Source of the DNA: a virus | Lineage: Duplodnaviria > Heunggongvirae > Uroviricota > Caudoviricetes | Length of the DNA stretch: 64,000 nt | Direction: 5' to 3' (one strand) | Virus record (IMG/VR): IMGVR_UViG_2565956726_000008 | Shown here: positions 4,928 to 53,707 of the stretch, in pieces | How positions within the stretch are numbered: the stretch's first letter is position 1 | How the letters are laid out: each line of letters begins with the position of its first letter | Program-made: the position numbers and the translations under genes | Notes under the pieces: generated by a model | What the model was told of the DNA's origin: nothing | Database searches by the model: none | The model's input: only the letters and a program-made list of their open reading frames with translations

Positions 4928-5310
4928 AACGCAGCGAAGTTTACGACGAAATAAGGGATTGGATTCAATCCCACGGATACGATGAAGGCTATATTTTGCA
5001 GGCCCGTTTCTGGAATGAGCGAAGTAATTCGAATAATGACAGATACATCGTGATCCAGCAAAACGGCGGCGCGGCTGGTGAGGAAGCAATAACCCGTGAT
5101 TATTTCCGCATCCTGGTTATTTCAGCGCGTAATGATGCAAATATCAGTGAGGTGGAAGACCTTGCCGATGCCATCCGTCAAAGTATGTTAACAGAATATA
5201 AAACTGATAAAATTACACACATGAAGCCAGTTGGCGCTATTCCTGCAATACAGACAAGAGAAGGGCGCTTTATTTTTACCGTAGCCTTTCAAACCATCAT
5301 ATCAAGATAA
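4924..5310 (+). CDS. tail terminator / tail completion protein (putative)
   Basis: 128-aa ORF overlapping previous stop, immediately before major tail gene. Confidence 0.4.
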   Translation: MKRSEVYDEIRDWIQSHGYDEGYILQARFWNERSNSNNDRYIVIQQNGGAAGEEAITRDYFRILVISARNDANISEVEDLADAIRQSMLTEYKTDKITHMKPVGAIPAIQTREGRFIFTVAFQTIISR

Positions 5311-32744: not shown

Positions 32745-33233
32745 ATGTTGGATGTATTTACTCCATTGTTGAAACTTTTTGCTAACGAGCCACTCGAAAG
32801 ACTTATGTATACGATTATCATTTTTGGTCTCACTCTCTGGCTGATACCGAAAGAGTTTGCTGTCGCATTCAATGCTTATACTGAAATACCCTGGCTCTTT
32901 CAGATTATCGTTTTTGCCTTTTCTTTCGTGGTCGCTATTTCCTTCTCAAGATTGCGAGCACATATTCAAAAGCATTATTCATTGCTACCAGAGCAACGAG
33001 TATTGCTTCGTTTATCTGAGAAAGAAATCGCTGTATTTAAAGATTTCCTTAAAACAGGAAATCTTATTATCACTTCTCCTTGCCGTAACCCGGTTATGAA
33101 AAAATTAGAACGGAAGGGCATCATTCAACATCAGAGTGATAGCGCAAACTGTTCTTATTATCTCGTCACCGAAAAATACTCCCACTTTATGAAGTTATTC
33201 TGGAACAGCAGGAGCAGGCGTTTTAATCGTTAG
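32745..33233 (+). CDS. sieB: superinfection exclusion protein B
   Basis: 162 aa from MLDVFTPLLKLF with two TM segments; track ORF extends upstream from a non-ATG start. Confidence 0.8.
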   Translation: MLDVFTPLLKLFANEPLERLMYTIIIFGLTLWLIPKEFAVAFNAYTEIPWLFQIIVFAFSFVVAISFSRLRAHIQKHYSLLPEQRVLLRLSEKEIAVFKDFLKTGNLIITSPCRNPVMKKLERKGIIQHQSDSANCSYYLVTEKYSHFMKLFWNSRSRRFNR

Positions 33234-38583: not shown

Positions 38584-38623
38584 TAATACTAAATAACCAG
38601 CCCTTATGGGGCTGGCTAATCAT

Positions 38624-39397
38624 TTAGAACTGTTCATTGCCATCGAGGTTAGGTAGCATAATTTTTTCAATCAAGGCGAGAGCCTTTTTGTCCCGGTCAG
38701 CGAAGTATTTCGGGGCATATTGCGGCAACCAAATATTGTTAAAATGTTCTTTGAAATCTGCTAAATATTCATTTGGGTACAGCCTTGCAGGGTATACGCG
38801 ACCATCGGGATATTCATGGTCATAGGTAGGGAATGTTTTGGGTTCTACGTTTCTATTATCTCTTAACCATTGTGAAAATACTCTTCCTTGTGAAATGTCA
38901 GGAACCATTTTTTCTGGGAGTGTGTACCCTGCTTGTTCAAGAGGTGCAACCAAGTTGAATGTCAGTTCATTAAGAATAGAAAAGTGCGTGTGAGGAATTC
39001 TACTACGATTAACCATGTACCGTTTTAAATGTACAGGCATTTCTGCTGTAGTTCTTTCCCCTGACATCCATTCACGAACCCATCTTGAAACCTGGACTGC
39101 AAATTTGGGCGATAGCCACTGCGCTAGATTAATAGCGATGTCAGGATGCACCCATGTCCCTTGGTTTTCAGGTCTTCCACCTTTAAATGATTGAATTAAC
39201 TCCGATATGGGAATTCCCATATCGCGTGATAATTCGTCAAAAAACTCTTGAGTAGTTTTGAGTCTAGTGTAATCAGAGAGCAGTTTGCCCGCAGTTCTAC
39301 ACATTGATGTGGCGTTTATGTAACCATCTTTGGCACGTAAATGTATTATTTCGCCGTCAATTTCACGAGAAATCAAAGATAATTGAAAGGATGTCAT
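38624..39397 (-). CDS. KilA-N domain protein (antirepressor-like)
   Basis: 257 aa; N-terminal KilA-N-like region (GEIIHLRAKDGYINATSMCR). Confidence 0.55.
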   Translation of the reverse strand: MTSFQLSLISREIDGEIIHLRAKDGYINATSMCRTAGKLLSDYTRLKTTQEFFDELSRDMGIPISELIQSFKGGRPENQGTWVHPDIAINLAQWLSPKFAVQVSRWVREWMSGERTTAEMPVHLKRYMVNRSRIPHTHFSILNELTFNLVAPLEQAGYTLPEKMVPDISQGRVFSQWLRDNRNVEPKTFPTYDHEYPDGRVYPARLYPNEYLADFKEHFNNIWLPQYAPKYFADRDKKALALIEKIMLPNLDGNEQF

Positions 39398-39919
39398 TGA
39401 AAATTCCTCAAGTTGGAGAGTTCTGGAACATTAAGGCGAGGTGGCAGTAATGCACCATCTGTAATCTTTTGATACTGACGTAATCGGGCCTGATGTGCAA
39501 CGCCTTGCAAGTATGTAACTCATTGAAAACGATCATTTTTATCTATTGACATCAAATGGCAAACTGTCATTGTGCGGCTATGGCAAGTGGCAAATGCTTA
39601 TAAATCATATGGATATAAATAGTACAGAAAGAGTTGTTTTCTCTAGGATATGAGTATACGCCCAATGCTGATTGGTTGAATTTTGTTCTTGTTTTAAAGG
39701 GTAAGAGTTTAAAGTGTTGGCAGTGATGTATTGGATAGTTAGAATTGCTGTGGGTGCTTGAGGCTATCTGCCTCGGGCATGAACACCAAAGGTAGATAGA
39801 GAAAAGCCCCAGTTAACATTACGCGTCCTGCAAGACGTTTAACATTAATCTGAGGCCATATCTATGCGACACATAGAGATTAGCCTCTTACGGACCGAAA
39901 GGTCAAGGAGAAGCAGGCT

Positions 39920-40045
39920 ATGAAGCAGCAAAAGGCGATGTTAATCGCCCTGATCGTCATCTGTTTAACCGTCATAGTGACGGCACTGGTAACGAGGAAA
40001 GACCTCTGCGAGGTACGAATCCGAACTGGCAGACGGAGGCTCTGA
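39920..40045 (+). pseudogene. hok/gef-family type I toxin remnant (frameshift and nonsense)
   Basis: Translation MKQQKAMLIALIVICLTVIVTALVTRKDLCEVRIRTG then out-of-frame RRRL-stop; 3' end still shows ...TAC TAA TCT GAG TAA as in hok ...YESE. Confidence 0.5.
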
Positions 40046-40127
40046 TTCGTAGACTACTAATCTGAGTAAAAGACCCAGCGGGGAAAGAACCACGCCGGGA
40101 CTAGTTAATAAGATATTTATAGCGTGG

Positions 40128-40469
40128 CTATTCTTTTTTTGCGGTATAGACTTTTTCGCCTGAGAAGTCTGGAGCTACCCAAAAGTTAATATTAAACTGA
40201 GCATCATCGCTTAGTTCAACACGGTGCCAGTATTGTGGTGGGCTTGTTGCAAAAGCGCCAGCATTAATGACTACTTTTATCTCCGGTTCAGTAGCATTCT
40301 CATCAGCAAAACCATAATATGTTACAGTACCTTCCATCACGCATAACTGTCCAAAAACACCTGCTGCTGTATTATGATGTGTTAATAACGCTGAAGGTAC
40401 GTTCTCTTTTGTGAAGAACGGAGTTGAGCGTTTGATTACCCAGTCTTTAGGAATTCTCTTGTGTGTCAT
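40128..40469 (-). CDS. cupin-fold protein (DUF1971-like), cargo gene
   Basis: 113 aa from MTHKRIPKDW; beta-rich composition; isolated minus-strand gene flanked by AT-rich DNA. Confidence 0.45.
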   Translation of the reverse strand: MTHKRIPKDWVIKRSTPFFTKENVPSALLTHHNTAAGVFGQLCVMEGTVTYYGFADENATEPEIKVVINAGAFATSPPQYWHRVELSDDAQFNINFWVAPDFSGEKVYTAKKE

Positions 40470-41336
40470 AACCACCTCCCATAAAACATGCATTATAAAT
40501 GCACCTTTTTGAGGGTTATGTCAAGCTGTTATGAAACACATAATTGATATGTTGATTAGAGGAGAAGATAGAATCAATATGGTTGTTTTTCGTATAACTA
40601 TTTGTTTTACTTTTAGTTTGTGCATTCTGTGTGTTAGGAATAACTTATTAAAGTTTAACTAAAAAATCTCGATATAGTCCGCATAGATTACTGTTACTGA
40701 ATCTTATTGTGTGCATTAGTTGTGTTCTGAAATTTCAATTTAATTACTTATGATATATTTTTAACGATAAATGTTTTCCGGGTGAAAGACAGTGGGGGAT
40801 GAGATAAGCAATATATCATTAATCTTGATTATTTCCAGGATGCCTTTACTGTGCATATAAATAAATCATATACGCATCAAATAATGTAAAGGCATCCTTT
40901 TAGATATATCTTATCAAATGTTAATGATTTGAGTGGGAAACATGATTCCAGAAACTAATCATGCGGCTACTTTATAAAAATAATGCCCATATAAAACAGC
41001 CAGCGAAAAGGATTACGGATAAAAAAGGAGCGAGATGTGCATAGTTGTTATTTTCCATGTTTAACCACCTTAAATAATTGATGATGACGGGATGTGCATC
41101 TGTAATGCTTTTGTTGAAATGTTATGATAAAAAAGAACTTTTTCATAACATTAAAATGTAATTTATCTAATCGTTTTTAATAATAAGTGTTGTATTTCTA
41201 TCCTTGTATCAGCTATTTGATATGTAGTGTTTGTTCATGTTATGTGGAGCTTTACACCATAGCCAGTTTATTTATACTTTATTCGTCAGCCTGAACAACT
41301 GGCATCTGCTGCACTGCGCCATCGAGAGATTGAGAA

Positions 41337-41936
41337 ATGGCGCATATACAACTGGTCAAACAAACCTCTTCTGGACTACTTCTCCCGGCGACGCCGGAGA
41401 GTTGCGATTTTTTGCATCAAATCAAAATAGGCGAGTGGATACACGCAGACTTTAAGCGTGTGCGTAACTACGCATTCCACAAGCGTTTTTTCAAACTCCT
41501 GCAACTGGGATTCGATTACTGGACTCCGGTCGGTGGGGCGATCACGCCTCGCGAACGAAAGCTGGTTTCAGGATTCGTTGATTACCTATGTGAATCAGTA
41601 GGCCGGGAACATACGCCAGCTCTGAGCGAAGCCGCAGAGCAATATCTGAATACAGTTGCGACACGCAGAACCCGGGATACGGCATTGCTAAAGTCGTTTG
41701 AGGCTTTCCGCGAGTGGGTAACCATTCAGGCCGGATTTTACACCGAGCATCTTTATCCTGATGGTAGCCATGGGCGTCGGGCGAAATCCATCGCTTTTGC
41801 GAATATGGACGAAACCGAGTTTCAGCAGGTTTATAAATCTGTTCTGAATGTGCTGTGGAACTGGATTCTGTTCCGTAAATTTTCCTCTCCGGAACAAGTC
41901 GAAAATGTGACCGCGCAGCTGCTGGAGTTTGCGTAA
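41337..41936 (+). CDS. DUF1367-type lambdoid late-region protein
   Basis: 199 aa; position upstream of Q as ydfU-like genes in other lambdoid prophages. Confidence 0.45.
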   Translation: MAHIQLVKQTSSGLLLPATPESCDFLHQIKIGEWIHADFKRVRNYAFHKRFFKLLQLGFDYWTPVGGAITPRERKLVSGFVDYLCESVGREHTPALSEAAEQYLNTVATRRTRDTALLKSFEAFREWVTIQAGFYTEHLYPDGSHGRRAKSIAFANMDETEFQQVYKSVLNVLWNWILFRKFSSPEQVENVTAQLLEFA

Positions 41937-42226
41937 TGGTGGATTTACGTAAAGCGGCGCGGGGGCAGATGTGCACCGTCAGAATTCCTGGCTACTGCAA
42001 TCACGATCCGGAAACGTCTGTGCTGGCGCATTACCGACTGGCGGGAACGTGCGGAACAGCGACAAAACCACACGATATGCAGGCGGCGATTGCCTGTAGC
42101 TCATGCCACGATCTAATCGACGGGCGGGTAAAAACCAGCGATTACACCAAAGAAGAATTACGCCTGATGCATGCAGAAGGTGTTTTTCGCACACAAGAAA
42201 TCTGGAGAAAGGAGGGATATTTGTGA
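41936..42226 (+). CDS. small Cys-rich zinc-binding protein (DUF1364-like)
   Basis: 96 aa with CxxxxxxC and CxxC pairs; ATG overlaps previous stop. Confidence 0.45.
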   Translation: MVDLRKAARGQMCTVRIPGYCNHDPETSVLAHYRLAGTCGTATKPHDMQAAIACSSCHDLIDGRVKTSDYTKEELRLMHAEGVFRTQEIWRKEGYL

Positions 42227-42765
42227 TTTACCCAACGAATACAGGAAAAAGCGGAGAACACCTTCGTCTCGCCACGCTGGAAAGTGTCTGGATTCAGGGC
42301 AAACTGCGTATGTGGGGGCGCTGGTCGTATATTGGCGGTGGCAGGTCAGGAAATATGTTCAATCAGTTGTTGGCATCCAAAAAATTGACGAAAACAGCCA
42401 TCAATGAAGCCCTGCGCAGAATGAAAAAAGCGGGAATAGAGAAAGCTGAGCTGGAAGCGTTTTTGCGAGAGATGATCAACGGCAAGCAAAAGAGCTGGCT
42501 GGCGCATTGTACTGATGCAGAGGCGTTATGTATTGATCGAGTCATAAGTGAGGTGCTGGCAGAGCATCCTGGATTGATTAGTGTCCTCCGGCAACGGTAT
42601 GAAGGACGGGGGATGACTAAGCGCAAAATGGCTGAATTGCTAAATGATGCACATCCTGAGTGGTGTTTTAGCACATGCGAAAAGCGAATTGCTAATTGGT
42701 TGGCTGTTGCTGAGTATGCCCTATATATTCCCATGCGAGAATCATTTGCTCAAAAAATAGCTTGA
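42223..42765 (+). CDS. late-gene antiterminator Q-like protein
   Basis: 180 aa from GTG overlapping upstream stop (GTGA); followed by promoter-plus-terminator arrangement typical of P_R'-tR'. Confidence 0.55.
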   Translation: MIYPTNTGKSGEHLRLATLESVWIQGKLRMWGRWSYIGGGRSGNMFNQLLASKKLTKTAINEALRRMKKAGIEKAELEAFLREMINGKQKSWLAHCTDAEALCIDRVISEVLAEHPGLISVLRQRYEGRGMTKRKMAELLNDAHPEWCFSTCEKRIANWLAVAEYALYIPMRESFAQKIA

Positions 42766-42850
42766 TTTTTTACGCATAAACTGCTTCAATTCCGGTATGC
42801 TTCGCAAAGCTGTATCGCGAGGCGAACCAAGCGCATGAACTTTACCAGAA
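42766..42850 (+). promoter_or_regulatory. candidate late promoter P_R' / qut region
   Basis: Inferred from position between Q stop and tR'-like terminator; hexamers not confidently assigned. Confidence 0.35.
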
Positions 42851-42877
42851 CCCGCCATTGAGCGGGTTTTGTTGTTT
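42851..42877 (+). terminator. tR'-like intrinsic terminator
   Basis: Hairpin cccgc-cattga-gcggg followed by TTTTGTTGTTT. Confidence 0.5.
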
Positions 42878-42986
42878 CTGGTACTGGTGAACCTGATGTT
42901 TCATTTCTGGAGCGCGATTCCTGGCGGAATACCTAGAATCGAGACATTCTGGTAAAATTGTTTTCAGTACAGGATGTGGAGGTGAG

Positions 42987-43556
42987 ATGAGAGAACTACC
43001 TAAAGATTATTTTTTAGGAGTAGATGATGAGCTCGTCGATTATCTTGAAAAACAAGGGGAAGAGACGATACGAGAGATTCATCTTTCTAACAAAACCAAT
43101 GTTGAGAATGGATACAAACTTCTGAACATTCAGATTGTTGGAATTGGTTCATCTTTTTTATTGCTGACACAGAAAACTAATTTCGATTTTCTCACCGCCG
43201 GAATTACCACATTTACATTACTATGGACATGGTGCGCCATTTACTTGGTATGTACTGGTTTATCTGTGAAGGTTAGGGGCCTGATCAATGCCCCTCCTGA
43301 TCATATATATCATGAAAAATATAAGGATATGGAGCCCTCGAGCTTTAAAATATTCGCTGATGCAGGATATTTAGGACCTGATAAGTTATTGCCGCTTATA
43401 CGAAGGTATCGCCTTGTTGACTTGAGTGATACAGCAAGAGAGTTACTGTTGGAAAATGAGAAAATCCGCACGAGTCTCGATAAAGCAAGGATGTATACCA
43501 TCCTTGCTCCGGTAGCGGCGATGTTTATCTCGGCTGTTTTTTTATATGTTCAATGA
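42987..43556 (+). CDS. membrane protein of unknown function (moron between Q and holin)
   Basis: 189 aa; GGAGG RBS; two central hydrophobic helices and a C-terminal TM. Confidence 0.5.
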   Translation: MRELPKDYFLGVDDELVDYLEKQGEETIREIHLSNKTNVENGYKLLNIQIVGIGSSFLLLTQKTNFDFLTAGITTFTLLWTWCAIYLVCTGLSVKVRGLINAPPDHIYHEKYKDMEPSSFKIFADAGYLGPDKLLPLIRRYRLVDLSDTARELLLENEKIRTSLDKARMYTILAPVAAMFISAVFLYVQ

Positions 43557-43686
43557 CTGAGTCGGCAGAATCTCCAACAAAAACACGACGTGTAGCAAAG
43601 TCTGTAGTACTTTGTGTTGGAGTTGGTTTTGGTGCCACGGGTTGCTGAGGTTTATTTTCACCTTGTGGTTTGTTTTTTTCAGACAT
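43525..43686 (-). CDS. small Pro/Gln-rich protein convergent with the membrane-protein gene
   Basis: 53 aa from MSEKNKPQGENKPQQPVAPKP; AGAGGA RBS 5 nt upstream; overlaps the 3' end of 42987..43556. Confidence 0.35.
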   Translation of the reverse strand: MSEKNKPQGENKPQQPVAPKPTPTQSTTDFATRRVFVGDSADSVIEHIKKQPR

Positions 43687-43903
43687 AAAAATCCTCTTTG
43701 TTTGAATTGTTACTTTTGGCGATTTAACGATATCAAACACGAGTATATACCGCCAGAAGCTTAATCTGGCACTCCATCTGGCCCCGGCATGTCCCGGGGC
43801 TTTTTCGTTGTTAGGCTCTGGAAACATCCTCGACTTCTTGTTAGCAAGCCTGAGAGCCTGAATCTTACACTTAGCACCATCCGAACTCTCGGAGGTGAGG
43901 CTT

Positions 43904-44245
43904 ATGAAAATGCACAATGCCCCTCATTCCTGGCCTGACTTACTGGAACTCTTACAAAGTTGGTGGCGTGGAGATACGCCGCTGGGTGCAGTGGTTATGT
44001 CAATTATTATGGCTGGTTTGCGCATTGCCTATTTTGGCGGTGGCGGCGGCTGGAAACGAAAAACGCTTGAGATTCTGCTTTGTGGTGCTCTGACGCTGAC
44101 CTTTGCATCCGCGCTTGAGTATGTCGGATGGCCTAAATCACTTTCTGTTGCCATTGGTGGTGGGGTGGGGCTGATTGGTGTTGATGCTATTCGTGGTGCG
44201 GCAATGAGGGTCATCGGTAACAAGTTCGGTGCCCATAAGGAGTAA
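43904..44245 (+). CDS. holin with dual-start motif (Met-Lys-Met)
   Basis: 113 aa from MKMHNAP; TM segments; immediately upstream of endolysin. Confidence 0.75.
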   Translation: MKMHNAPHSWPDLLELLQSWWRGDTPLGAVVMSIIMAGLRIAYFGGGGGWKRKTLEILLCGALTLTFASALEYVGWPKSLSVAIGGGVGLIGVDAIRGAAMRVIGNKFGAHKE

Positions 44246-44248
44246 TTA

Positions 44249-44725
44249 ATGCAGACACTTAATTCCCAGCGTAAAGCTTTCCTTGATATGGTGGCATGGT
44301 CAGAAGGAACAGATAACGGACGGCAGAAAACCAGAAATCACGGTTATGATGTTATTGTCGGTGGCGAACTGTTCACTGATTACTCCGATCACCCCCGCAA
44401 ACTTGTCACGCTAAATCCGAAACTCAAATCAACAGCCGCTGGACGTTACCAGCTTCTTTCACGCTGGTGGGATGCCTACCGCAAGCAACTTGGCCTGAAA
44501 GATTTTTCTCCAGAAAGTCAGGATGCTGTAGCGCTGCAGCAGATTAAAGAGCGTGGCGCTTTGCCGATGATTGATCGCGGTGATATCCGTCAGGCTATCG
44601 ACCGTTGCAGCAATATATGGGCTTCACTGCCGGGCGCTGGTTATGGTCAGTTCGAGCATAAGGCTGACAGTCTGATTGCAAAATTCAAAGAAGCTGGCGG
44701 AACGGTCAGAGAGATTGAGGTATGA
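44249..44725 (+). CDS. R: endolysin, lambda R-type lytic transglycosylase
   Basis: 158 aa, near-identical to lambda R as recalled ([32 protein letters not shown]). Confidence 0.9.
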
Positions 44726-45186
44726 GCAGAGTAACCGCGATTATCTCCGCTCTGGTTATCTGCATCGTCGTCTGCCTGTCATGGGGTGTTAATCATTACC
44801 GTGATAACGCCATCGCCTACAAAGAACAGCGCGACAAAAATGCCAGAGAACTGAAGCTGGCGAACGCGGCAATTACTGACATGCAGATGCGTCAGCGTGA
44901 TGTTGCTGCGCTCGATGCAAAATACACGAAGGAGTTAGCTGATGCGAAAGCTGAAAATGATGCTCTGCGTGATGATGTTGCCGCTGGTCGTCGTCGGTTG
45001 CACATCAAAGCAGTCTGTCAGTCAGTGCGTGAAGCCACCACCGCCTCCGGCGTGGATAATGCAGCCTCCCCCCGACTGGCAGACACCGCTGAACGGGATT
45101 ATTTCACCCTCCGGGAACGACTGGTAATGATGCAGGCCCAACTTGAAGGTGCTCAGCAATACATAACCGAGCAGTGTTTAAAGTAA
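44722..45186 (+). CDS. Rz: i-spanin Rz
   Basis: 154 aa; N-terminal TM and coiled coil; overlaps R stop. Confidence 0.9.
44942..45127 (+). CDS. Rz1: o-spanin Rz1 (embedded in Rz, +1 frame)
   Basis: 61-aa lipoprotein [20 protein letters not shown] with PPPPP tract, entirely inside Rz. Confidence 0.85.
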
Positions 45187-45323
45187 AATCTTAACTACAA
45201 TATGATTCATTTTGATGATTGTTTCATAAGGAACAGTGAAGTAAGATCTAAGAGGAGTTAAATTTTATACAGTATAATCATAATATTGCAGCAAGGTGGT
45301 TATAATTGAAAGAATATTTAGAT

Positions 45324-46781
45324 ATGAATACATCTCATGTAAGAGTTGTTACTCATATGTGTGGGTTCCTGGTTTGGCTCTATAGTCTTTCAATGTTGCC
45401 ACCAATGGTTGTAGCATTGTTTTATAAAGAAAAAAGCCTGTTCGTTTTCTTTATAACTTTCGTTATATTTTTTTGCATTGGTGGCGGAGCGTGGTATACA
45501 ACTAAGAAATCTGGCATTCAATTACGTACCCGTGATGGGTTTATTATAATTGTAATGTTTTGGATTTTGTTTTCTGTTATTAGTGCATTCCCTTTATGGA
45601 TTGACTCAGAACTTAATTTAACGTTCATTGATGCTCTGTTTGAAGGGGTTTCTGGAATAACAACAACAGGAGCAACTGTAATTGATGATGTTAGTTCATT
45701 ACCTCGGGCATATTTGTACTATCGGTCACAGTTAAATTTTATAGGTGGTTTAGGAGTTATTGTTCTGGCGGTTGCTGTATTGCCATTATTGGGTATTGGT
45801 GGTGCAAAGCTTTATCAGTCAGAAATGCCGGGGCCATTTAAGGATGACAAACTCACTCCCCGCCTGGCCGATACGTCACGGACACTGTGGATAACTTATT
45901 CTTTATTAGGTATTGCTTGTATTGTCTGTTATAGACTTGCAGGAATGCCTTTGTTTGATGCTATTTGTCACGGGATTTCCACAGTTTCGCTTGGTGGTTT
46001 CTCAACTCATAGCGAGAGTATCGGATATTTTAATAACTATTTGGTTGAGCTGGTGGCTGGTTCTTTTTCCCTGCTATCGGCTTTCAACTTCACTCTTTGG
46101 TATATTGTTATTAGCAGGAAAACGATAAAACCTTTAATCAGAGATATTGAACTTCGTTTCTTTCTGTTAATAGCCTTAGGGGTGATCATTGTTACCTCTT
46201 TCCAGGTCTGGCATATAGGTATGTATGACTTGCATGGAAGTTTTATTCATTCGTTTTTTCTTGCCAGCTCCATGCTCACTGATAATGGTTTAGCTACGCA
46301 GGATTATGCAAGTTGGCCCACGCACACGATAGTGTTTTTGCTGTTGTCAAGTTTCTTTGGGGGATGTATAGGTTCAACTTGTGGTGGAATTAAGTCACTT
46401 CGATTTCTTATACTTTTCAAACAAAGCAAACACGAGATAAATCAGCTTTCTCATCCCAGAGCGTTGTTGAGTGTAAATGTAGGAGGGAAGATAGTTACAG
46501 ATCGTGTAATGAGGTCTGTATGGAGTTTCTTTTTTCTTTATACTCTCTTCACGGTGTTTTTTATACTGGTGTTAAATGGTATGGGATATGATTTTCTTAC
46601 ATCATTTGCAACAGTGGCTGCATGTATTAATAATATGGGATTAGGTTTTGGGGCTACTGCATCGTCATTCGGAGTGCTTAATGACATTGCAAAATGTTTA
46701 ATGTGCATAGCTATGATTCTTGGTCGCCTTGAAATTTATCCTGTTATTATATTGTTTTCAGGTTTTTTTTGGCGCTCCTAA
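45324..46781 (+). CDS. trkG: potassium uptake protein TrkG
   Basis: 485 aa from MNTSHVRVV; multi-TM; AT-rich gene as in Rac. Confidence 0.9.
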   Translation: MNTSHVRVVTHMCGFLVWLYSLSMLPPMVVALFYKEKSLFVFFITFVIFFCIGGGAWYTTKKSGIQLRTRDGFIIIVMFWILFSVISAFPLWIDSELNLTFIDALFEGVSGITTTGATVIDDVSSLPRAYLYYRSQLNFIGGLGVIVLAVAVLPLLGIGGAKLYQSEMPGPFKDDKLTPRLADTSRTLWITYSLLGIACIVCYRLAGMPLFDAICHGISTVSLGGFSTHSESIGYFNNYLVELVAGSFSLLSAFNFTLWYIVISRKTIKPLIRDIELRFFLLIALGVIIVTSFQVWHIGMYDLHGSFIHSFFLASSMLTDNGLATQDYASWPTHTIVFLLLSSFFGGCIGSTCGGIKSLRFLILFKQSKHEINQLSHPRALLSVNVGGKIVTDRVMRSVWSFFFLYTLFTVFFILVLNGMGYDFLTSFATVAACINNMGLGFGATASSFGVLNDIAKCLMCIAMILGRLEIYPVIILFSGFFWRS

Positions 46782-46918
46782 TATATGGCTGATTTATAAT
46801 TGTGAGTTTAATATTATGTTGACTCACTCATTGATCCAATACCTAACTTTACCAGCAACACCTCCGTCCCCAGTAGCACTGGCTGCTGGGGTGCGTTTTA
46901 TTCATAAAGCAAGGCTGT

Positions 46919-47710
46919 ATGAGCGAGAAATTAAAGATAGTCTATCGCCCATTACAAGAATTGTCACCGTATGCGCACAACGCCAGGACGCACAGTACTG
47001 AGCAGGTGGCACAACTGGTAGAAAGTATTAAGCAATTCGGCTGGACTAATCCGGTGCTGATTGACGAAAAGGGCGAAATTATTGCGGGTCACGGTCGTGT
47101 TATGGCGGCTGAAATGCTCAAAATGGATTCTGTTCCGGTCATTGTTCTGTCTGGCCTGACGGATGAGCAGAAAAAGGCGTACCGCCTGGCAGATAATCGC
47201 CTGCCGATGAATGCTGGCTGGGATGAAGATCTGTTGCGGATGGAGCTGTCGGACCTAATCAATGCTGATTTTGATGTCTCCCTGACAGGCTTCATCCCGA
47301 CAGAAATTGATGAACTGTTGACGGATGTTTTGCCCGGTACAGGAAATGAGGAGGAGCCGTATACGACGAAAATTGATACGCCTGTTTATGAGCCGTCGGG
47401 CGGTAAACCGGATATCAGTGAACTGTACGACGATACGAAAACTCAGGAGCTGATCAGCCGGATACGTTCGGCGTCCCTTGAGCCTGATATTGAGAAATTC
47501 CTCCTGTGTGCGGCAGAACGTCACACGGTGTTTAATTTCAGCAGAATTGCGGACTATTACGCTCACGCCCCCTCTGAAATTCAGTGTTTTTTCGAGGAGT
47601 CGGCGCTGGTGATCATTGATTATCAGCAGGCTATTGAAAATGGATTTGTCCGGATGACGCAGCGCATGGTGGAGATCATGCATGGTGGTGAGGAGGAGGA
47701 ATATGCGTGA
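46919..47710 (+). CDS. ynaK: ParB-like nuclease domain protein (full-length ynaK-like)
   Basis: 263 aa; N-terminal ParB/Srx motif region (IIAGHGRVMAA); K-12 carries a short version. Confidence 0.65.
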   Translation: MSEKLKIVYRPLQELSPYAHNARTHSTEQVAQLVESIKQFGWTNPVLIDEKGEIIAGHGRVMAAEMLKMDSVPVIVLSGLTDEQKKAYRLADNRLPMNAGWDEDLLRMELSDLINADFDVSLTGFIPTEIDELLTDVLPGTGNEEEPYTTKIDTPVYEPSGGKPDISELYDDTKTQELISRIRSASLEPDIEKFLLCAAERHTVFNFSRIADYYAHAPSEIQCFFEESALVIIDYQQAIENGFVRMTQRMVEIMHGGEEEEYA

Positions 47711-48635
47711 TGATTTTTGCGCCTTTATTCTGACTCACGGGCGACCGGACAAAGTTCTGACTTACCGGACGTTGCGTCGTGCTGGCTATACCGGGAAAAT
47801 TTTTATCGTTGTTGATGATGAAGATAAGACACGGCATCAGTACATGGCTGAATTTGGTGAACAGGTGCTGGTGTTTTCCAAAGCCGATATCGCCAGTCGT
47901 TTTGACGAAGCCGATAATTTCTGTGACCGCCGCTCAATTTTTTACGCCCGTAATGCCTGTTTCGACCTGGCAAAACTGGTCGGGTGTAAATACTTCATTC
48001 AGCTCGATGATGATTATCACGAGTTCCAGTTTCGGGTGGATCGCAACTATGACCAGGCCTATTTTCCGATAAGGAAACTGGATGCGATCCTTTCTGAAAT
48101 GCTGGCGTACTACGAATCAATACCTGCTCTTTCCATCGCTATGTCGCAGGGCGGGGATTTTCTTGGTGACAATGGCGGCCATGCTTCGTGGGTGAAACGC
48201 AAGGCAATGAACAGCTTTATCTGTTCGGTTGATCGACCGTTCTCATTCATGGGGCGCATTAACGAGGATGTGAATACGTACACGAATCTCGGTCGCTGTG
48301 GTGAATTGTTTATGACGATCGGTGCTGTCCAGTTAGGGCAGAAACAGACGCAGAAAAACAGCGGCGGAATGACCGAGCTGTATCTGGATTCCGGAACCTA
48401 CGTTAAAAGTTTTTACTCCGTCATGTATGCGCCGTCGTGCGTAAAAATCTCACTGATGGGTGCCAGCCATAAACGCATTCACCATCAGGTCACCTGGAAC
48501 AACGCTGCAGTAAAAATCCTTCACGAAAAATACAGGAAGAAGACACCCTGCATATCAATGGGGGTGACAAATGATTCCGTATTCGAAAGTCGAGTCTCTG
48601 GCAGCGTGCCGGATGACTGCACAACAAATCGCTGA
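47703..48635 (+). CDS. hypothetical protein with DxD motif (possible GT-A-like nucleotide-sugar transferase; ydaY-like)
   Basis: 310 aa from MRDDFCAF; IFIVVDDEDK and QLDDDYHEF acidic motifs; overlaps ynaK end. Confidence 0.35.
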   Translation: MRDDFCAFILTHGRPDKVLTYRTLRRAGYTGKIFIVVDDEDKTRHQYMAEFGEQVLVFSKADIASRFDEADNFCDRRSIFYARNACFDLAKLVGCKYFIQLDDDYHEFQFRVDRNYDQAYFPIRKLDAILSEMLAYYESIPALSIAMSQGGDFLGDNGGHASWVKRKAMNSFICSVDRPFSFMGRINEDVNTYTNLGRCGELFMTIGAVQLGQKQTQKNSGGMTELYLDSGTYVKSFYSVMYAPSCVKISLMGASHKRIHHQVTWNNAAVKILHEKYRKKTPCISMGVTNDSVFESRVSGSVPDDCTTNR

Positions 48636-48822
48636 CGTTCTGGATGTTGATCTGAACCGACTGAAAGAAAATCGGGAAGCAATGACAGATTTTTATGCGG
48701 CCATCCGTAAGGGCAGAGCGAAAGGTGAAGCCGAGTTACGAGCGGCATTGTTTAAGCTTGCCAGAAAAGGGGATGCCTTTGCTCTGCGCGAACTACTCAG
48801 GGTGGATAAAAATCAGGACTAA
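48571..48822 (+). CDS. small HTH DNA-binding protein (packaging-region)
   Basis: 83-aa ORF overlapping the previous gene end. Confidence 0.3.
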   Translation: MIPYSKVESLAACRMTAQQIADVLDVDLNRLKENREAMTDFYAAIRKGRAKGEAELRAALFKLARKGDAFALRELLRVDKNQD

Positions 48823-48825
48823 CTG

Positions 48826-49920
48826 ATGAGCAGACCGGACTGGGGGGCGTTGCAGCAGGAGTATATTGCTGAATACACCCGCTCCGGTATATCTCCGGTG
48901 GCATGGTGTGAAGCAAGGGGACTGAATTACGCAACAGCCCGTCGTTACATCAAAAAAACTCCGAAAAATGCGCAGACAGAAATGTGCAAAACTGCGCAAA
49001 AAAGTGCGCAGAAAAAATCTGCGCAGACTGCACAAAAGCGGAACGAAAAATCTCAGGAAAAAAAGCCAGTATTCGATGCGGGCCTGAATGAGGGCGACGC
49101 GGAGGAATTTTCGTTCTGTCCCGATGAATTCGGCATTTCTGACCAGCAGGCTAAGTTTGCGATGCTTGTTGCTCAGGGTAAAAAGCCGACAGAGGCGTAC
49201 CGACTAGCCGGTTATGAGGGGCAAGGTGCGACAGCTAATAGCAACGCCAGTCGTATGCTTAGAAATGCCAGGGTTTTTCGCGCTATCAGCTACTTCCGCA
49301 ATCAGTACCAGAAACGCTATACCGCAGACCTGGATTTACTAGTGAGTCAGTTGATGGCCATTGTCCTGGCCGACCCCAATCAGCTTGCACAATTTCGCCG
49401 TGTTAACTGCCGTTATTGCTGGGGCGAGAATCATCTCTACCAGTGGCGCGATATAGCAGAATTCGACAAGGCAGCGGCGCAGGCTTCCAGAGATGGCAAA
49501 CCCGAACCGGAATATGGAGGCCTCGGCTTTGTTGATAACGCCATACCCAATCCGGACTGCCCGAAGTGCTGCGGTGAGGGAACGGGACAGCTTTATATGG
49601 CTGATACCACTCTGCTTGATGGGGATGCGCGGCAATTATATGCAGGGGCAAAATTCGGAAAATTCGGCGTTGAGATCCTGCTGGAGGATAAGGCTGCCGC
49701 CCGGCGTGAATTGTTGCGTTTGCTTTCTGCTGGCGGGGCTTTATGTGCAGATAAGCGGCTACAGGAACTGGAAATTGAACGGCGCAGAATGGAAAACCAG
49801 AAGCTGCGCAAAGAGATCGAAACGGTGGAAGATAATGAACATCCCCAGCCTGTGGCGATCAATATTAATGTGGTTGATGCCAGAGTAAGGAGTGATGAAG
49901 ATGATCTCTCCGACGCTTAA
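48826..49920 (+). CDS. terminase small subunit-like protein (N-terminal HTH, Cys-rich zinc-ribbon-like region)
   Basis: 364 aa; immediately upstream of and overlapping the large terminase gene; CxxC...CPKCC motifs. Confidence 0.45.
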   Translation: MSRPDWGALQQEYIAEYTRSGISPVAWCEARGLNYATARRYIKKTPKNAQTEMCKTAQKSAQKKSAQTAQKRNEKSQEKKPVFDAGLNEGDAEEFSFCPDEFGISDQQAKFAMLVAQGKKPTEAYRLAGYEGQGATANSNASRMLRNARVFRAISYFRNQYQKRYTADLDLLVSQLMAIVLADPNQLAQFRRVNCRYCWGENHLYQWRDIAEFDKAAAQASRDGKPEPEYGGLGFVDNAIPNPDCPKCCGEGTGQLYMADTTLLDGDARQLYAGAKFGKFGVEILLEDKAAARRELLRLLSAGGALCADKRLQELEIERRRMENQKLRKEIETVEDNEHPQPVAININVVDARVRSDEDDLSDA

Positions 49921-51202
49921 TGTGCCTCAGGCGCGATTTCTTTCAATGCCCCATAAATTTAAAGCCTATATTGCTGGTTTTGGCTCGGGCAAAACATGGG
50001 TTGGGTGTGGCGGCATATGCAAGGGGATTTGGGAGCATCCAGGTATAAATCAGGGATATTTTGCGCCAACGTATCCCCAAATTCGCGATATTTTTTACCC
50101 TACAGTGGAAGAAGTTGCTGCTGACTGGGGATTGAACGTAAAAATTAATGAGGGAAATAAAGAGGTTCACTTTTATTACGGACGCCAGTATCGGGGAACC
50201 ACTATCTGCAGATCGATGGAGAAGCCACAAACGATCGTCGGTTTCAAAATTGGTAATGCGTTGGTGGATGAACTGGACATTTTGCCGAAGGAAAAAGCCA
50301 GAACGGCGTGGCGCAAGATAATTGCACGTATGCGTTATAAGATTGATGGACTTCGCAACGGTATTGACGTTACAACCACGCCGGAAGGATTCAAATTTGT
50401 CTACGAGCAGTTTGTTAAAGCCGTGCGTGAAAAAACAGAGCTGGCCTCACTGTATGGTCTGGTGCAGGCATCTACTTTCGATAATGAAAAGAACCTGCCA
50501 GCAGATTACATTCCTTCGCTTCTTGAATCATACCCTCCAGAGCTGATTAAAGCCTATCTTCGAGGACAGTTTACTAACCTGACAAGTGGTACTGTTTACC
50601 ATCAGTTTGACCGGAAACTGAATAATTGCGAAGAAGTGGAGCAGCCAGGGGAGCCGATTTATATTGGGATGGATTTTAACGTTGGAAAGATGGCGGGAAT
50701 CGTCCATGTGCTGCGTTTGGGGCTTCCATGTGCGGTAACTGAAATCATCAATGCCTACGATACGCCGGATATGATCCGCATCATTAAAGAACGCTTCTGG
50801 CTGTATGATGGGAATGATTACCGGAAAGTGAGGGAAATTTATATTTATCCAGATGCTTCCGGGGATTCCAGAAAATCAAGTAACGCAAGTACGACGGATA
50901 TAGCCCAGCTTAAGCAGGCTGGTTTTAACGTTGTGGTGAACAGCTCGAACCCGCCAGTAAAAGATCGCGTTAACTCAATGAATGCAATGTTCTGCAATGC
51001 CAATGGTGAGCGTCGCTATAAAGTTAATGTGAAGCGTTGCCCGTTATATGCCGAATCTCTGGAGCAACAGGTCTGGGATGAGAAGGGGGAGCCTGATAAA
51101 AAATCTGGCAATGATCACCCGAATGATGCCGGAGGTTATTTCATCGTTAAGCAATTCCCTATTGTCAAACCGACCGGAAGAGTCACATCACTTCGGATTT
51201 AA
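49892..51202 (+). CDS. terminase large subunit
   Basis: 436 aa; Walker A GFGSGKT; position before portal. Confidence 0.8.
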   Translation: MMKMISPTLNVPQARFLSMPHKFKAYIAGFGSGKTWVGCGGICKGIWEHPGINQGYFAPTYPQIRDIFYPTVEEVAADWGLNVKINEGNKEVHFYYGRQYRGTTICRSMEKPQTIVGFKIGNALVDELDILPKEKARTAWRKIIARMRYKIDGLRNGIDVTTTPEGFKFVYEQFVKAVREKTELASLYGLVQASTFDNEKNLPADYIPSLLESYPPELIKAYLRGQFTNLTSGTVYHQFDRKLNNCEEVEQPGEPIYIGMDFNVGKMAGIVHVLRLGLPCAVTEIINAYDTPDMIRIIKERFWLYDGNDYRKVREIYIYPDASGDSRKSSNASTTDIAQLKQAGFNVVVNSSNPPVKDRVNSMNAMFCNANGERRYKVNVKRCPLYAESLEQQVWDEKGEPDKKSGNDHPNDAGGYFIVKQFPIVKPTGRVTSLRI

Positions 51203-51204
51203 TT

Positions 51205-52611
51205 ATGGCTGATATATCAACACCCAACCTCGACTATAACGATATGCTGGAGGCGTGGGATATTAACGACGCACTGATGGGCGGTACGCTTGAAATGCGC
51301 AGGCAGGGGGAAAATTATCTCCCAAAATGGCCTAACGAAGATGAAGACGCTTATAAAAAACGCCTGTCTGTGGCTACGCTACTTCCTGTGTATGAAGAAA
51401 GCATCAAGCAAAATATTGGGCGCATATTTGCAGAGCCGACAGTATTGAGTGAGGAAACGCCGGCAAAAATCAGGGAATATGCAGAAAATATCGACATGGA
51501 GGGGAGCCGACTGGATGTGTGGGCGCAGCAATTTTTCAGCCTCGCATTTCAGTATGGTGTGGCACATGCGCTGGTGGACTATCCACGAACGGATATGAAA
51601 GAGATTCGGACAAAAGCCGATGAAAACGCGGCCGGTGGTCGTCCGTACGTTACGATGCTGAATCCACGCCAGGTTATTGGATGGAAATCGAAAGTTGAAA
51701 AAGGGAAAGTTGTTCTCACTGATTTGCGTATAAAAGAGGTCATCATTATTGATGGTGATGATTTCGGGCAGAAGAAGGTGGAGCAGATCCGCCATATTAT
51801 GCCCCGTCGAGTTGAAATTTATCGACGTAGCGAAGGCACTAATGGCGAATCTGTCTGGACGCTTCATGAGTCATGGAATACCAGCCGTGATGATATTCCT
51901 CTGGTAACACTGTACACGAAGAAAACAGGATTTATGCGTGGTACACCGCCATTGCTTAATCTTGGCTTGCTGAATATCAAGCACTGGCAAAGCCAGAGCG
52001 AGCAGGACAATATTCTTCATGTTGCCCGCGTTCCATTGCTGGTGGCCTACGGGCTGGACAGGAATGAAGAACTGACGGTTGGTGCATCCACCGCTACGAT
52101 TTTTGAGGACAGAACAAAAAATGGCCTCGAATATGTTGAACATAGTGGCGCAGCGATAGAATCTGGCGAAACATCACTTGAGAAGCTGGAAAATCAGATG
52201 CGTCATGCCGGCGCTAAACTTCTGCGTGCTGAAAATACATCCACCAAATCTGTTGATCAGACTAATGAAGAGCGAATGCAGGAAAACTCGCCGCTTTATA
52301 CAATGGCGAACTCCCTCGAAGATGCCCTCGATAATATTCTCCAGATAATGGCGGAATGGATCGGAGAGAGTTGCGGTGGCAATGTGGATGTGCGCACTGA
52401 ACTGGATGTATCTGCCCAGGTGTTTGACTCATCCTCCGCGCTGGCTGTTCAGTCATTGCGTCAGGGCGGTGATATACGTCAGATTGATGCGGTTCGGGTG
52501 TTGCAGGCGTTGAAATTTATCGATCAGGATTCCCGTCCAGAGGAAGTGATCGATGAATTAAAAAATCAGAGTGTAATGCTGATGGAAATCAATGATGCAA
52601 ACCGTGAATGA
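51205..52611 (+). CDS. portal protein
   Basis: 468 aa immediately after the large terminase gene. Confidence 0.7.
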   Translation: MADISTPNLDYNDMLEAWDINDALMGGTLEMRRQGENYLPKWPNEDEDAYKKRLSVATLLPVYEESIKQNIGRIFAEPTVLSEETPAKIREYAENIDMEGSRLDVWAQQFFSLAFQYGVAHALVDYPRTDMKEIRTKADENAAGGRPYVTMLNPRQVIGWKSKVEKGKVVLTDLRIKEVIIIDGDDFGQKKVEQIRHIMPRRVEIYRRSEGTNGESVWTLHESWNTSRDDIPLVTLYTKKTGFMRGTPPLLNLGLLNIKHWQSQSEQDNILHVARVPLLVAYGLDRNEELTVGASTATIFEDRTKNGLEYVEHSGAAIESGETSLEKLENQMRHAGAKLLRAENTSTKSVDQTNEERMQENSPLYTMANSLEDALDNILQIMAEWIGESCGGNVDVRTELDVSAQVFDSSSALAVQSLRQGGDIRQIDAVRVLQALKFIDQDSRPEEVIDELKNQSVMLMEINDANRE

Positions 52612-53707
52612 ACGGCTGCGTGATGAATCAATTGCTCATGCAGTCTGGATATCCCGCTATAGCACTGGCGTGGCTGCCAGAATGGTGAAAATACTGAATG
52701 ACAGCGATGCGGAACTTACTGCTCGCCTGCTGATAGCACTGGACAGCCTCGATCCAGGTAGTTTTACCGTTAAGCGCCTGGAGTCACTTCTGGCGAGCGT
52801 CAGAGAGGTTAACCGCACTGCTATTAACAGCATGTTTACCAGTCTCTCCGGAGAGCTGAACGAGCTGGCAATTTATGAGGCTGGTTATCAGTTAAGTCTG
52901 TTTGATTCTATGCTACCTGATTTTGTTGCTGATGTTCACCCTCTGGTTGGTATCTCTCCTGATGCACTTTATGCCGCTGCAATGGCGCGACCATTCCAGG
53001 GACGACTGCTCAGTGAGTGGGCCTCAGATCTTGAAGCGGATCGGCTCAGACGCATAACAAATACAGTGCGTCAGGGTTTTTTGCTGGGGGATACCAATGA
53101 GCAGATCGCAAGAAAAATTCGGGGACATGTCAGTAAGGGATTTCAGGATGGTGCATTGCAGATGAGCCGGGCTAATGCGGCCAGCATTGCAAAAACAGCG
53201 GTTGGACATCTTGCTGCTACTGCCCGTGAGAGTTTTGCCAGCGCGAATAATGATTTGATTAAGGGTAAGCAATGGTTATCAACGCTTGATAATCGTACTA
53301 CGCCACAATGTCGAATCAGGGATCGCCTCAAATATACGCTGAATAATAAACCTGTAGGTCACAGCGTGCCTTATTTGCAGGGGCCGGGAAAAATTCATTT
53401 CTGCTGCCGCTCAACGGAAACGTTCATTCTGAAATCAGCGAAGGAACTGGGTATTGATGTTCGCGATATTTCCCCGGCTGAGCGGGCCAGCATGGATGGC
53501 GTGGTGGCCGGAGATACAACCTACAGGGAATGGTTTTTGCGTCAGCCTTACACCAGACAAAAACAGATTGTGGGGGAAACCCGAGCAAAGCTGATTCGGG
53601 ATGGTGGTATGTCGCCAGATGAATTTTACACCGATAAAGGCGAATGGCTGACGCTGAAGCAGCTCCGTGAGCGTGATGCACAGGTATTCAGAAAAGCAGG
53701 GATTTAA
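52592..53707 (+). CDS. head morphogenesis protein (Mu F-like)
   Basis: 371 aa after portal; overlaps portal 3' end. Confidence 0.65.
   Translation: MMQTVNERLRDESIAHAVWISRYSTGVAARMVKILNDSDAELTARLLIALDSLDPGSFTVKRLESLLASVREVNRTAINSMFTSLSGELNELAIYEAGYQLSLFDSMLPDFVADVHPLVGISPDALYAAAMARPFQGRLLSEWASDLEADRLRRITNTVRQGFLLGDTNEQIARKIRGHVSKGFQDGALQMSRANAASIAKTAVGHLAATARESFASANNDLIKGKQWLSTLDNRTTPQCRIRDRLKYTLNNKPVGHSVPYLQGPGKIHFCCRSTETFILKSAKELGIDVRDISPAERASMDGVVAGDTTYREWFLRQPYTRQKQIVGETRAKLIRDGGMSPDEFYTDKGEWLTLKQLRERDAQVFRKAGI

Follow-up and report, generated by a model that had tools for sequence, protein, structure and literature searches.

A convergent two-gene cassette between Q and the holin gene of a Rac-type prophage: a candidate phage-exclusion module with a membrane protein and a conserved small partner

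The stretch of DNA analyzed here (the window), 64,000 nucleotides (nt) recorded in IMG/VR as IMGVR_UViG_2565956726_000008, consists of Escherichia coli chromosome with a complete Rac-type lambdoid prophage. Between the tR'-like terminator and the holin gene S of this prophage, an insert at approximately 42881-43890 was found to carry two convergent genes overlapping at their 3' ends, one for an inner-membrane protein of 189 amino acids (aa) and the other for a basic protein of 53 aa. Judged by its borders, composition and distribution, this two-gene unit appears to be an autonomous, horizontally mobile moron cassette. The reading favored here, with a probability of roughly 45%, is that the large gene encodes a membrane effector akin to PycTM, lacking a cyclase, that serves in phage exclusion or abortive infection and would be held in check by the antisense-coupled small protein. 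The anatomy of the cassette is described with high confidence, and its function with much lower confidence.

A total of 95 loci, corresponding to about 60 distinct cassettes with large proteins 49-100% identical, was collected from IMG/VR, GTDB and GenBank. A convergent open reading frame (ORF) accompanied every full-length copy of the large gene, with a 3' overlap of 20-35 nt; one copy contained an N and another a 1-nt homopolymer frameshift. The small ORF was also present in all seven remote relatives (about 20-31% identity) with downstream DNA (L096, L097, L100, L101, L107, L109, and L111), where the overlaps ranged from 21 to 71 nt. When 31 cassettes were compared, conservation followed the codon positions 1/2/3 of each gene in its own frame, with values of 0.76/0.83/0.50 for the large gene and 0.69/0.75/0.54 for the small one. 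PGAP calls both genes, as hypothetical proteins. The recurrence goes well beyond chance. Since the pair recurs and both members exhibit codon-periodic conservation, the two ORFs are real genes, and the small ORF is an obligate partner of the large one, the pair being kept down to about 20% identity.

The large gene (42987..43556, + strand; phrog_11870 at 1e-107; WP_001208721) is preceded by the Shine-Dalgarno sequence GGAGGTGAG at 42978..42986 (+), as read from the sequence. Homologues of its product numbered 104 in a collection of 5.8 billion proteins; nearly all of them were 189 aa long, and they came from many genera of Enterobacterales. A profile search of 1.84 billion representatives returned 102 clusters, some of them only about 20% identical and belonging to other Proteobacteria such as Pandoraea. 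The protein is laid out as an acidic cytoplasmic N-terminal helix (the first 44 residues have a net charge of -5), a glycine- and serine-rich first transmembrane helix (TM1, residues ~45-62) with the motif GIGSSF, a second one (TM2, ~68-92), a cytoplasmic segment with RRYRL and a C-terminal third one (TM3, ~168-189). According to hydropathy and charge, only about five loop residues and the C-terminus are exposed to the periplasm. The AlphaFold2 model, built from a 42-sequence alignment, reached a pLDDT of 83 and contained three long helices (14-62, 68-92, and 134-188); as modeled, a three-helix membrane domain would continue as a two-helix stalk on the cytoplasmic side, where the protein would also have a less ordered insert. 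The conserved charged residues E21, E25, N38, E40, R139, R140, R142, and N157 were all cytoplasmic, a placement that would fit sensing from the cytoplasm better than a block of DNA entry from outside.

The small gene (43525..43686, - strand; phrog_14506 at 6e-33) shares 32 nt with the large gene, and its ATG is preceded at 5 nt by a Shine-Dalgarno sequence, AGAGGA (43692..43697, -), with GGAG as the alignment consensus. In the small proteins, an MSE/Q-x-NKP start is followed by a low-complexity middle part, variable and rich in Pro, Gln and Lys, and then by the motif DFxxxRxFVGDSA(D/E) and a basic tail. They lack any hydrophobic segment, and their net charge was +2 to +5 in 34 distinct versions, the exception being the acidic partner in the remote locus L100. 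The length of the ORF varied from 47 to 62 aa across the cassettes, reaching 86 aa in one remote locus, and its insertions and deletions were multiples of three. The C-terminal motif, in the form (R/K)xF(V/L)GDSA(D/E), was retained even in the remote locus L107, where the large protein is only about 27% identical. The 71-aa version starting at GTG, as called by PGAP, was rejected; the upstream stretch had no codon periodicity (0.72/0.67/0.72) and was out of frame in L008. The ATG start giving 53 aa is therefore preferred.

Each of the genes is preceded by a promoter-like element. For the large gene, this was TGGTAAAAT (42950..42958, +; hexamer TAAAAT at 42953-42958), which has the extended -10 form and lies 28 nt before the ATG. 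It formed a conserved island (0.72) in a variable leader (0.21-0.57), and a TAnAAT hexamer was located 27-35 nt before the ATG in 47 of the 58 distinct cassettes. Upstream of the small gene, a non-coding block with the minus-strand sequence TGATATCGTTAAATCGCCAAAAGTAAC (43707..43741, -) was conserved at 0.80-0.83 with no codon periodicity, a level that matches the best coding segments even where the cassette proteins are only about 50% identical. Within this block, TGATATCGT (+ strand coordinates 43727-43735) fits, by its conservation, an extended -10 promoter: an alignment of 24 cassettes had an invariant T, G, T, A, G and T at the TG, -12, -11, -8, and -7 positions, and 48 of the 58 distinct cassettes had TGnTAnnnT on the minus strand, 27-48 nt upstream of the ATG of the small gene. 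The promoter-like element accounts for the first 9 nt of the 30-nt block TGATATCGTTAAATCGCCAAAAGTAAC and not for the next ~20 nt; the latter, which would form the 5' end of the mRNA of the small gene, could function as an RNA element or as a binding site.

The unit is bracketed by terminators of the + strand. At the left edge of the insert, the terminator scan detected a tR'-like intrinsic terminator (42846..42881, +; hairpin at 42846-42871 followed by a T-run; fold of -18 kcal/mol, z = -4.7) at the break of homology, and a terminator was located upstream of the large gene in 48 of 58 distinct cassettes. The cassette is closed by another intrinsic terminator (43780..43812, +; hairpin at 43780-43801, T-run to 43812), found by scan and fold, and a + strand terminator was present downstream in 44 of the 58. 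A short hairpin, GCCAGA...TCTGGC, is predicted to fold at 43752..43770, between the conserved block and this terminator. In the short hairpin 77% of cells were paired, compared with 31-41% for the whole two-helix structure in slid controls; the terminator also had pairing above the slid controls, and compensatory changes were present in both. Wobble pairs in the short hairpin point to either strand. No minus-strand terminator was found in the scan of 42600-44000, and no Rfam family matched 42500-44100 at E <= 1. On its way to the closing + strand terminator, the transcript of the large gene is expected to cross the small gene and its promoter entirely. The two mRNAs would thus be extensively complementary, given the convergent genes, the distal + strand terminator and the result of the minus-strand scan.

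Homology to other E. coli prophages with the same Q (DUF1133) ends at ~42824-42880 and resumes at ~43890-43960, and the G+C content was 0.37-0.42 across 42950-43700, compared with about 0.50 in both flanks. The insert was carried by 223 of 5,426 genomes, about 4% of complete E. coli genomes, whereas the query flanks (mainly Q and pR') were matched by around 1,700 E. coli genomes. The unit thus has two features by which morons are recognized, extra genes between normally adjacent neighbors and a base composition unlike the surroundings. Of the signals that a moron has of its own, the terminator is clear, and the promoter would be the conserved -10-like element TGGTAAAAT, with no recognizable -35. 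Related prophages hold tRNAs, TolA-like genes or NanS-type esterase genes in the same Q-to-S slot. The initial annotation of this region was confirmed in its anatomy. The gene for a 189-aa membrane protein with a strong ribosome-binding site, the convergent 53-aa ORF and the hairpin between Q/tR' and the holin gene were all recovered at or near the positions it gave; the hairpin, placed at about 43780..43805, corresponds to the closing + strand terminator; the homology break, the composition and the other cargo of the slot bear out its proposal of a moron-type insertion; and that it could not place the membrane-embedded protein in a known family agrees with the lack of any curated family match. 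It had treated the small ORF as incidental, which does not hold in view of the constancy of the pair. The expectation of Q-dependent, late expression covers only part of the picture, as the cassette has its own conserved promoter-like elements and bracketing terminators and also occupies slots outside Q operons (tail operons, a site in a Mu-like phage and positions adjoining cI).

The family is distributed among temperate phages of Enterobacterales, with remote relatives beyond. Neighbors were scanned in diverse loci, comprising 36 upstream and 78 downstream proteins. Four families of Q were detected among the upstream proteins (PF03589 in 8, PF06530 in 7, DUF1133 in 6, and PF06323 in 3, some proteins matching both PF06530 and DUF1133), together with ORF6N, KilA-N or Rha proteins, tail assembly chaperones and, in one locus, a ParE-like toxin. 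Downstream, at least six holin families and several types of endolysin were found. In a subgroup located in tail operons (L080, L085, and L090), the cassette lies just ahead of the tape measure gene, in the company of KilA-N, Rha and Bro morons. Among the remote loci, one (L097) adjoins cI, with the large gene running in the same direction as cI; in L107, cI is followed directly by the small gene, encoded on the same strand, an arrangement that by analogy may be read as a rexAB-like position; L101 belongs to a Mu-like phage; and L111 has HicA and YdaS as neighbors. Such varied slots are typical of accessory cargo (conversion, exclusion or defense genes).

Natural variants of the pair were observed in the same collection. 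In a Rac-type prophage whose right flank (terminator and holin) matches that of the window (L084, positions 1050-1750; IMGVR_UViG_2778261065_000002), the cassette has another allele, with a large protein only 58% identical and a different small protein; this appears to be an allele replacement in a fixed slot, as for genes under diversifying selection. In a group of E. coli genomes of ST361 type (L113 and L114), a 1-nt deletion within the 32-nt overlap (window position 43536) rewrites the last 8 residues of the membrane protein, now 190 aa long, and lengthens the small protein by about 27 aa.

Similarity searches placed the two proteins of the window in no characterized family: neither was matched in Pfam, NCBIfam or PADLOC, and in PHROGs only families of unknown function were returned. 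No Pfam, NCBIfam, PADLOC, PDB or Rfam entry matched the close subfamily, and the PDB sequence search with the family profile gave nothing below E = 0.26. The link to known effectors comes from the remote members. One of them, P0145, belongs to the family by its match to the family profile (E = 4e-22) and to the window protein (BLASTP 5e-19, 31% identity), and has its own convergent 53-aa partner. This protein matched the PADLOC model of PycTM (PDLC02364) at E = 1.5e-8, with residues 17-182 aligned to positions 7-152 of 160, nearly end to end, and the model of the CBASS "2TM effector" (PDLC00700) at E = 4e-5. Weaker matches in PADLOC were obtained for P0143 (0.007-0.011 to PycTM) and P0130 (0.004 to 2TM), and sub-threshold Pfam hits of single remote members were to PycTM, SLATT_3 and YLATT. 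When the remote members themselves served for a profile search of the word-indexed database, no proteins came up beyond those already in the family. Neither a cyclase nor a CD-NTase was found beside about 70 cassettes, counting the flanks of the window, the 36 upstream and 78 downstream proteins and the remote loci. Since no such enzyme accompanies any cassette, the family seems to be neither a Pycsar nor a CBASS system, and it may be a cyclase-less offshoot of the PycTM/2TM effector superfamily. A search of the literature by accession, slot and prophage defense, within the searchable library, found no paper on the family; a domain-centric screen that mentions PycTM (NAR 2026) describes a normal Pycsar operon and not this cassette.

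On this basis, the cassette could work as follows. The transcript of the large gene would be antisense to the whole small mRNA and run over the promoter of the small gene, so that the two genes would antagonize each other's expression by antisense pairing and transcriptional interference, as suggested by the geometry and by precedent: related switching has been reported for taiEcA/atiEcA of phi80 and for sieB/sas of P22. When Q antiterminates transcription from pR', or when another lytic operon reads through, the level of the membrane protein would rise and the small gene would be silenced. If this is true, the two-gene switch would separate the behavior of the lysogen from that of the lytic cycle. 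The membrane protein, as a distant and cyclase-less relative of the effectors of cyclic-nucleotide abortive infection (PycTM and CBASS 2TM), would act on the inner membrane and block or abort infection by other phages. Abortive infection is more likely than an entry block, because the protein has almost no periplasmic surface. The small protein, its mRNA as antisense, or both would be the brake, and loss of the brake would release the effector; the acidic N-terminal helix (-5) and the basic peptide (+2 to +5) are, speculatively, plausible contact partners. As the prophage already carries the sieB gene of Rac, the cassette would be an additional candidate for an exclusion or defense function and not the sole one.

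Several observations weigh against this reading. The window protein and 41 close homologues gave no hit in PADLOC at E <= 1 and no match in Pfam or NCBIfam, so the PycTM link is transitive and depends mainly on one remote member, and shared composition can inflate the apparent similarity of helical membrane proteins. Structure searches were uninformative, with hits confined to generic long-helix bundles (for example, BAR domains). The promoters are recognized by conservation alone, neither of them with a recognizable -35, and the orientation of the cassette relative to cI varies between L097 and L107. A lethal pore-former encoded co-directionally with a lytic operon, late or early, could be harmful to the burst of the phage itself if it needed no trigger. 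In addition, a natural frameshift argues against an indispensable protein antitoxin: in an IMG isolate (L035), a change from T7 to T6 at window position 43673 shifts the small ORF out of frame after codon 4, with the large gene intact. This change could be a homopolymer sequencing error, and as proof of a dispensable small protein it carries little weight, coming from one record and from a T7 run.

The cassette might instead be an addiction module resembling toxin-antitoxin systems, or a lysogenic-conversion module, with no role against phages. The membrane protein would then affect envelope physiology (for example, ion leak, persistence, tolerance of stress, or resistance to antibiotics or colicins) or stabilize the prophage, and the small gene would tune its level. 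This explanation is unlikely, yet it survives best among the alternatives to an exclusion function. It would account for the moron layout with its own promoter-like elements and terminators, and for accessory neighbors such as HicA and YdaS in L111, the ParE-like toxin upstream in one locus and hok, which PGAP annotates near the cassette in the prophage of the window; convergent partners overlapping at their 3' ends are also typical of some type I systems. The family, however, was found almost exclusively in phages and prophages, where it occupies slots of exclusion genes (such as that next to cI or one comparable to that of HK97 gp15), and its remote similarity is specifically to defense effectors. 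Furthermore, a 189-aa protein with a large conserved cytoplasmic part is unlike the type I toxins, and the antisense partner is protein-coding. The definition of type II systems does not apply either, the genes being convergent and overlapping and the small protein having no recognizable domain.

A reversed polarity, with the small protein as the factor of the lysogen (for defense or acting on the host) and the membrane protein as the antidote or lytic helper of the phage, is considered quite improbable. Its model is phage phi80, in which taiEcA, opposite to the Q operon, is a defense made in lysogens and the co-directional atiEcA is a late counter-defense (PMC11364771). In accordance with this, in most slots the large gene is co-directional with the lytic operon and the small gene is opposed to it, and the position of the small gene of L107, directly after cI on the same strand, makes co-transcription in lysogens probable. 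On the contrary, the large gene has its own conserved -10-like element after a terminator, and it is the large protein, not the small one, that resembles known effectors. A low-complexity protein of about 50 aa, in which only a short C-terminal motif is conserved, would also be an unlikely sole effector.

A role in lysis, by which the membrane protein would modulate the holin (as an antiholin or in lysis timing) or ready the membrane for lysis, was the idea most clearly disfavored by the data, and its probability is low. The cassette does lie directly before the holin gene in most Enterobacterales loci, co-directional with pR', and the large protein is a small multi-pass membrane protein. Nevertheless, the holins downstream are of at least six unrelated families and the endolysins of several types, and the tail operons, immunity regions and Mu-like phage that also harbor the cassette have no lysis genes adjacent to it. 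The many Q families, holin families and slots thus argue strongly against a function bound to lysis or to one holin. Moreover, most prophages with this type of Q lack the cassette (223 of the ~1,700 flank-matching E. coli genomes carry it), a + strand terminator separates it from S, and neither protein matched a holin or antiholin profile in Pfam, PHROGs or NCBIfam. Among the three functions offered by the initial annotation, holin modulation consequently loses ground with the variety of holins and the loci devoid of lysis genes; the counter-case that it named, a conserved accessory component of the holin/antiholin system, finds neither a holin family match nor a constant holin partner; and exclusion or abortive infection remains the best guess, apparently strengthened by the remote similarity to PycTM/2TM effectors. 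Finally, the proposal that the small ORF makes no functional protein and that its transcript acts alone as a cis-antisense RNA on the membrane-protein gene would agree with the non-coding block at its promoter and 5' end being the most conserved part of the region, with the frameshift tolerated in L035 and with the variable, low-complexity N-terminal two thirds of the protein, but it is very improbable when the ORF is open in essentially every cassette, with an ATG, a Shine-Dalgarno sequence, codon-periodic conservation in its frame, in-frame indels and a C-terminal motif kept as far away as L107.

Since the Q-to-S slot is where lambdoid prophages carry Shiga toxin and other conversion genes, uncharacterized cargo located there is of interest. 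Morons in this slot, as well as accessory genes on the opposite strand coupled to phage operons, are already known. The new elements are a family pair that has not been described, its obligate convergent overlap, a highly conserved non-coding control block and the remote link to effectors without a signaling enzyme. A broader claim can be made, although it is doubtful: that the cassette represents a new and widespread class of phage-borne defense, in which an orphan PycTM-like pore-former without cyclic-nucleotide signaling would be controlled by a convergent, antisense-coupled, basic and disordered mini-protein and switched by read-through from the phage operon that harbors the cassette (Q-dependent late, early-left or tail). 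If the exclusion reading is true, the pair would be a compact two-gene anti-phage module that PADLOC did not recognize, PycTM-like effectors could be wired to a regulator other than a nucleotide, and the cassette would be a clean natural case of convergent-gene antisense control separating lysogeny from lytic growth. Otherwise, the pair is still a well-defined target, for which natural variants exist (the divergent allele, the altered C-termini of both proteins and the frameshifted small ORF).

With respect to its surroundings, window 38589-52950 was 99.99% identical to E. coli TUM14771 (NZ_CP128875). In this counterpart, PGAP annotates ydaT/U/V, DUF1367, DUF1364 (YbcO), a DUF1133 protein and two hypothetical proteins, followed by a lambda-family holin, a GH24 endolysin, Rz, trkG, and ynaK. 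Window 1-21817 was not collinear with this best-matching genome, and the IS5 copy that interrupts the prophage of TUM14771 is absent from the window (at ~38590). Because the left third is not collinear and the IS5 copy is lacking, the source strain of the window seems to be another Rac lysogen than TUM14771. The left neighbor of the cassette, outside it, is the gene for the late antiterminator Q (42223..42765, +), assigned by Pfam (DUF1133 at 1.4e-107, and Phage_antitermQ), by its PHROG ("anti-termination protein Q-like") and as a coding sequence in PGAP. The only consensus sigma-70 match within 42600-44000 was located at window 42700-42729, inside the 3' end of Q, with TTGGCT and TATATT separated by an 18-nt spacer. 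If this is pR', the RNA made before tR' would be short, about 140 nt. The stretch gtatgcttcgcaaagctgtatc of this region recurs in L086, and its 3' part in L002, the same type of Q adjoining in these loci.

The right neighbor, likewise outside the cassette, is the lambda-family holin gene S (43904..44245, +; Pfam Phage_holin_3_1 at 1.9e-27, TIGR01594 at 4.7e-41). Its product begins with Met-Lys-Met (MKM, window 43904-43912), which we take to be the dual-start arrangement of lambda S107/S105. An antiholin mechanism thus seems to be present in the prophage already, and the cassette need not supply one. The gene trkG, for a potassium transporter and a classical cargo of Rac, follows directly after Rz/Rz1 (window 45306-46781), so that accessory cargo flanks the lysis cassette on both sides. 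The sieB gene of Rac, mapped from the annotation of NZ_CP128875, lies at window ~32745-33233 (+) and is oriented against the early-left operon (kilR, recET).

Additional observations were made in other loci of the collection. In L097, the small ORF is preceded directly, on its own strand, by a gene for a ribbon-helix-helix protein (Arc/Mnt-like; 4838-5005, -), which could be a dedicated repressor of that transcription unit. In Citrobacter-type prophages, 2-4 tRNA genes (Met, Phe, Leu, Thr, and Gly) follow the cassette and replace the + strand terminator (L004, 5820-6127; L050, 4811-4962; L052, 4820-5053), much as Stx phages have tRNA arrays in this slot. The locus L002 (PP818812, "Actinobacillus phage vB_Apl-pPE4", 47,508 bp) and H71 (CP100067, an E. 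coli "plasmid" of 47,704 bp) gave the same match of 52.4% over the same query range. The late-control layout of L002 is like that of the window, with genes of 600, 291, and 555 nt before the cassette, all annotated as hypothetical; judging by these likenesses, L002 may be an enterobacterial phage or phage-plasmid and not a phage of Actinobacillus.

When the cassette is compared with known systems, type I toxin-antitoxin loci have a similar geometry. Convergent, 3'-overlapping antisense partners are found in txpA/ratA and bsrG/SR4 of Bacillus subtilis. The cassette shares with such loci the 3'-overlapping convergent units, a "toxin" that would act on the membrane and the location in a prophage. 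It differs from them in the size of the candidate toxin, 189 aa with a large cytoplasmic part instead of fewer than 60 aa, and in an antisense transcript that is a conserved protein-coding mRNA. The geometry of the cassette would likewise require the transcript overlap of excludons and noncontiguous operons.

The classical moron gene 15 of HK97, a superinfection exclusion gene with a putative terminator after it, is comparable in place to the cassettes of the tail operons, and in both cases extra genes in a late operon are combined with a promoter-like element, a downstream terminator and an atypical base composition. HK97 gp15 is a single protein of 62 aa, unlike the two convergent overlapping genes of the cassette, and a relationship between them was rejected: the slot is comparable and no sequence similarity was detectable, HK97 not being returned by tblastn of the phage collection at E <= 1e-5.

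Parallels in expression are found in sieB and the tai/ati genes. SieB of P22 and lambda is a membrane protein by which the prophage aborts other phages, and its expression is switched by a cis-antisense RNA (esc/sas; PMC12197685, PMC7067206). Lambda SieB, of 184 aa, is similar in size to the large protein, and its gene is oriented against the surrounding lytic operon. By contrast, the membrane helices of SieB are N-terminal and its C-terminal part is soluble, a topology that differs from that of the large protein, and the antisense partner in the cassette encodes a conserved protein. Homology to SieB was rejected (hhalign probability of 0.3% between the family profile and lambda SieB, and no Pfam SieB hit). 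In phi80, expression of Q and late read-through lower TaiEcA, an arrangement termed a "noncontiguous operon" (PMC11364771). The likeness to the cassette is that of an opposite-strand accessory gene within a Q-controlled operon beside a co-directional partner; the proteins are others, the text on Tai in that paper mentions no membrane protein, the slot is upstream of the packaging genes, and the partner acting as effector may be reversed.

In the proposed action, the cassette is likened to PycTM, the membrane effector of Pycsar, which is described as forming pores and causing abortive infection upon cyclic-pyrimidine signaling (PMC11224242). This pore-forming abortive infection is the action proposed for the large protein, which is also similar to PycTM and the CBASS 2TM effectors in size (about 160-190 aa) and in being a stand-alone helical membrane protein. 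The difference from Pycsar and CBASS lies in the company and the place of the effector: the constant partner in the cassette is a convergent basic protein of about 50 aa and not a cyclase, and the family resides in the moron slots of phages and not in chromosomal defense islands.

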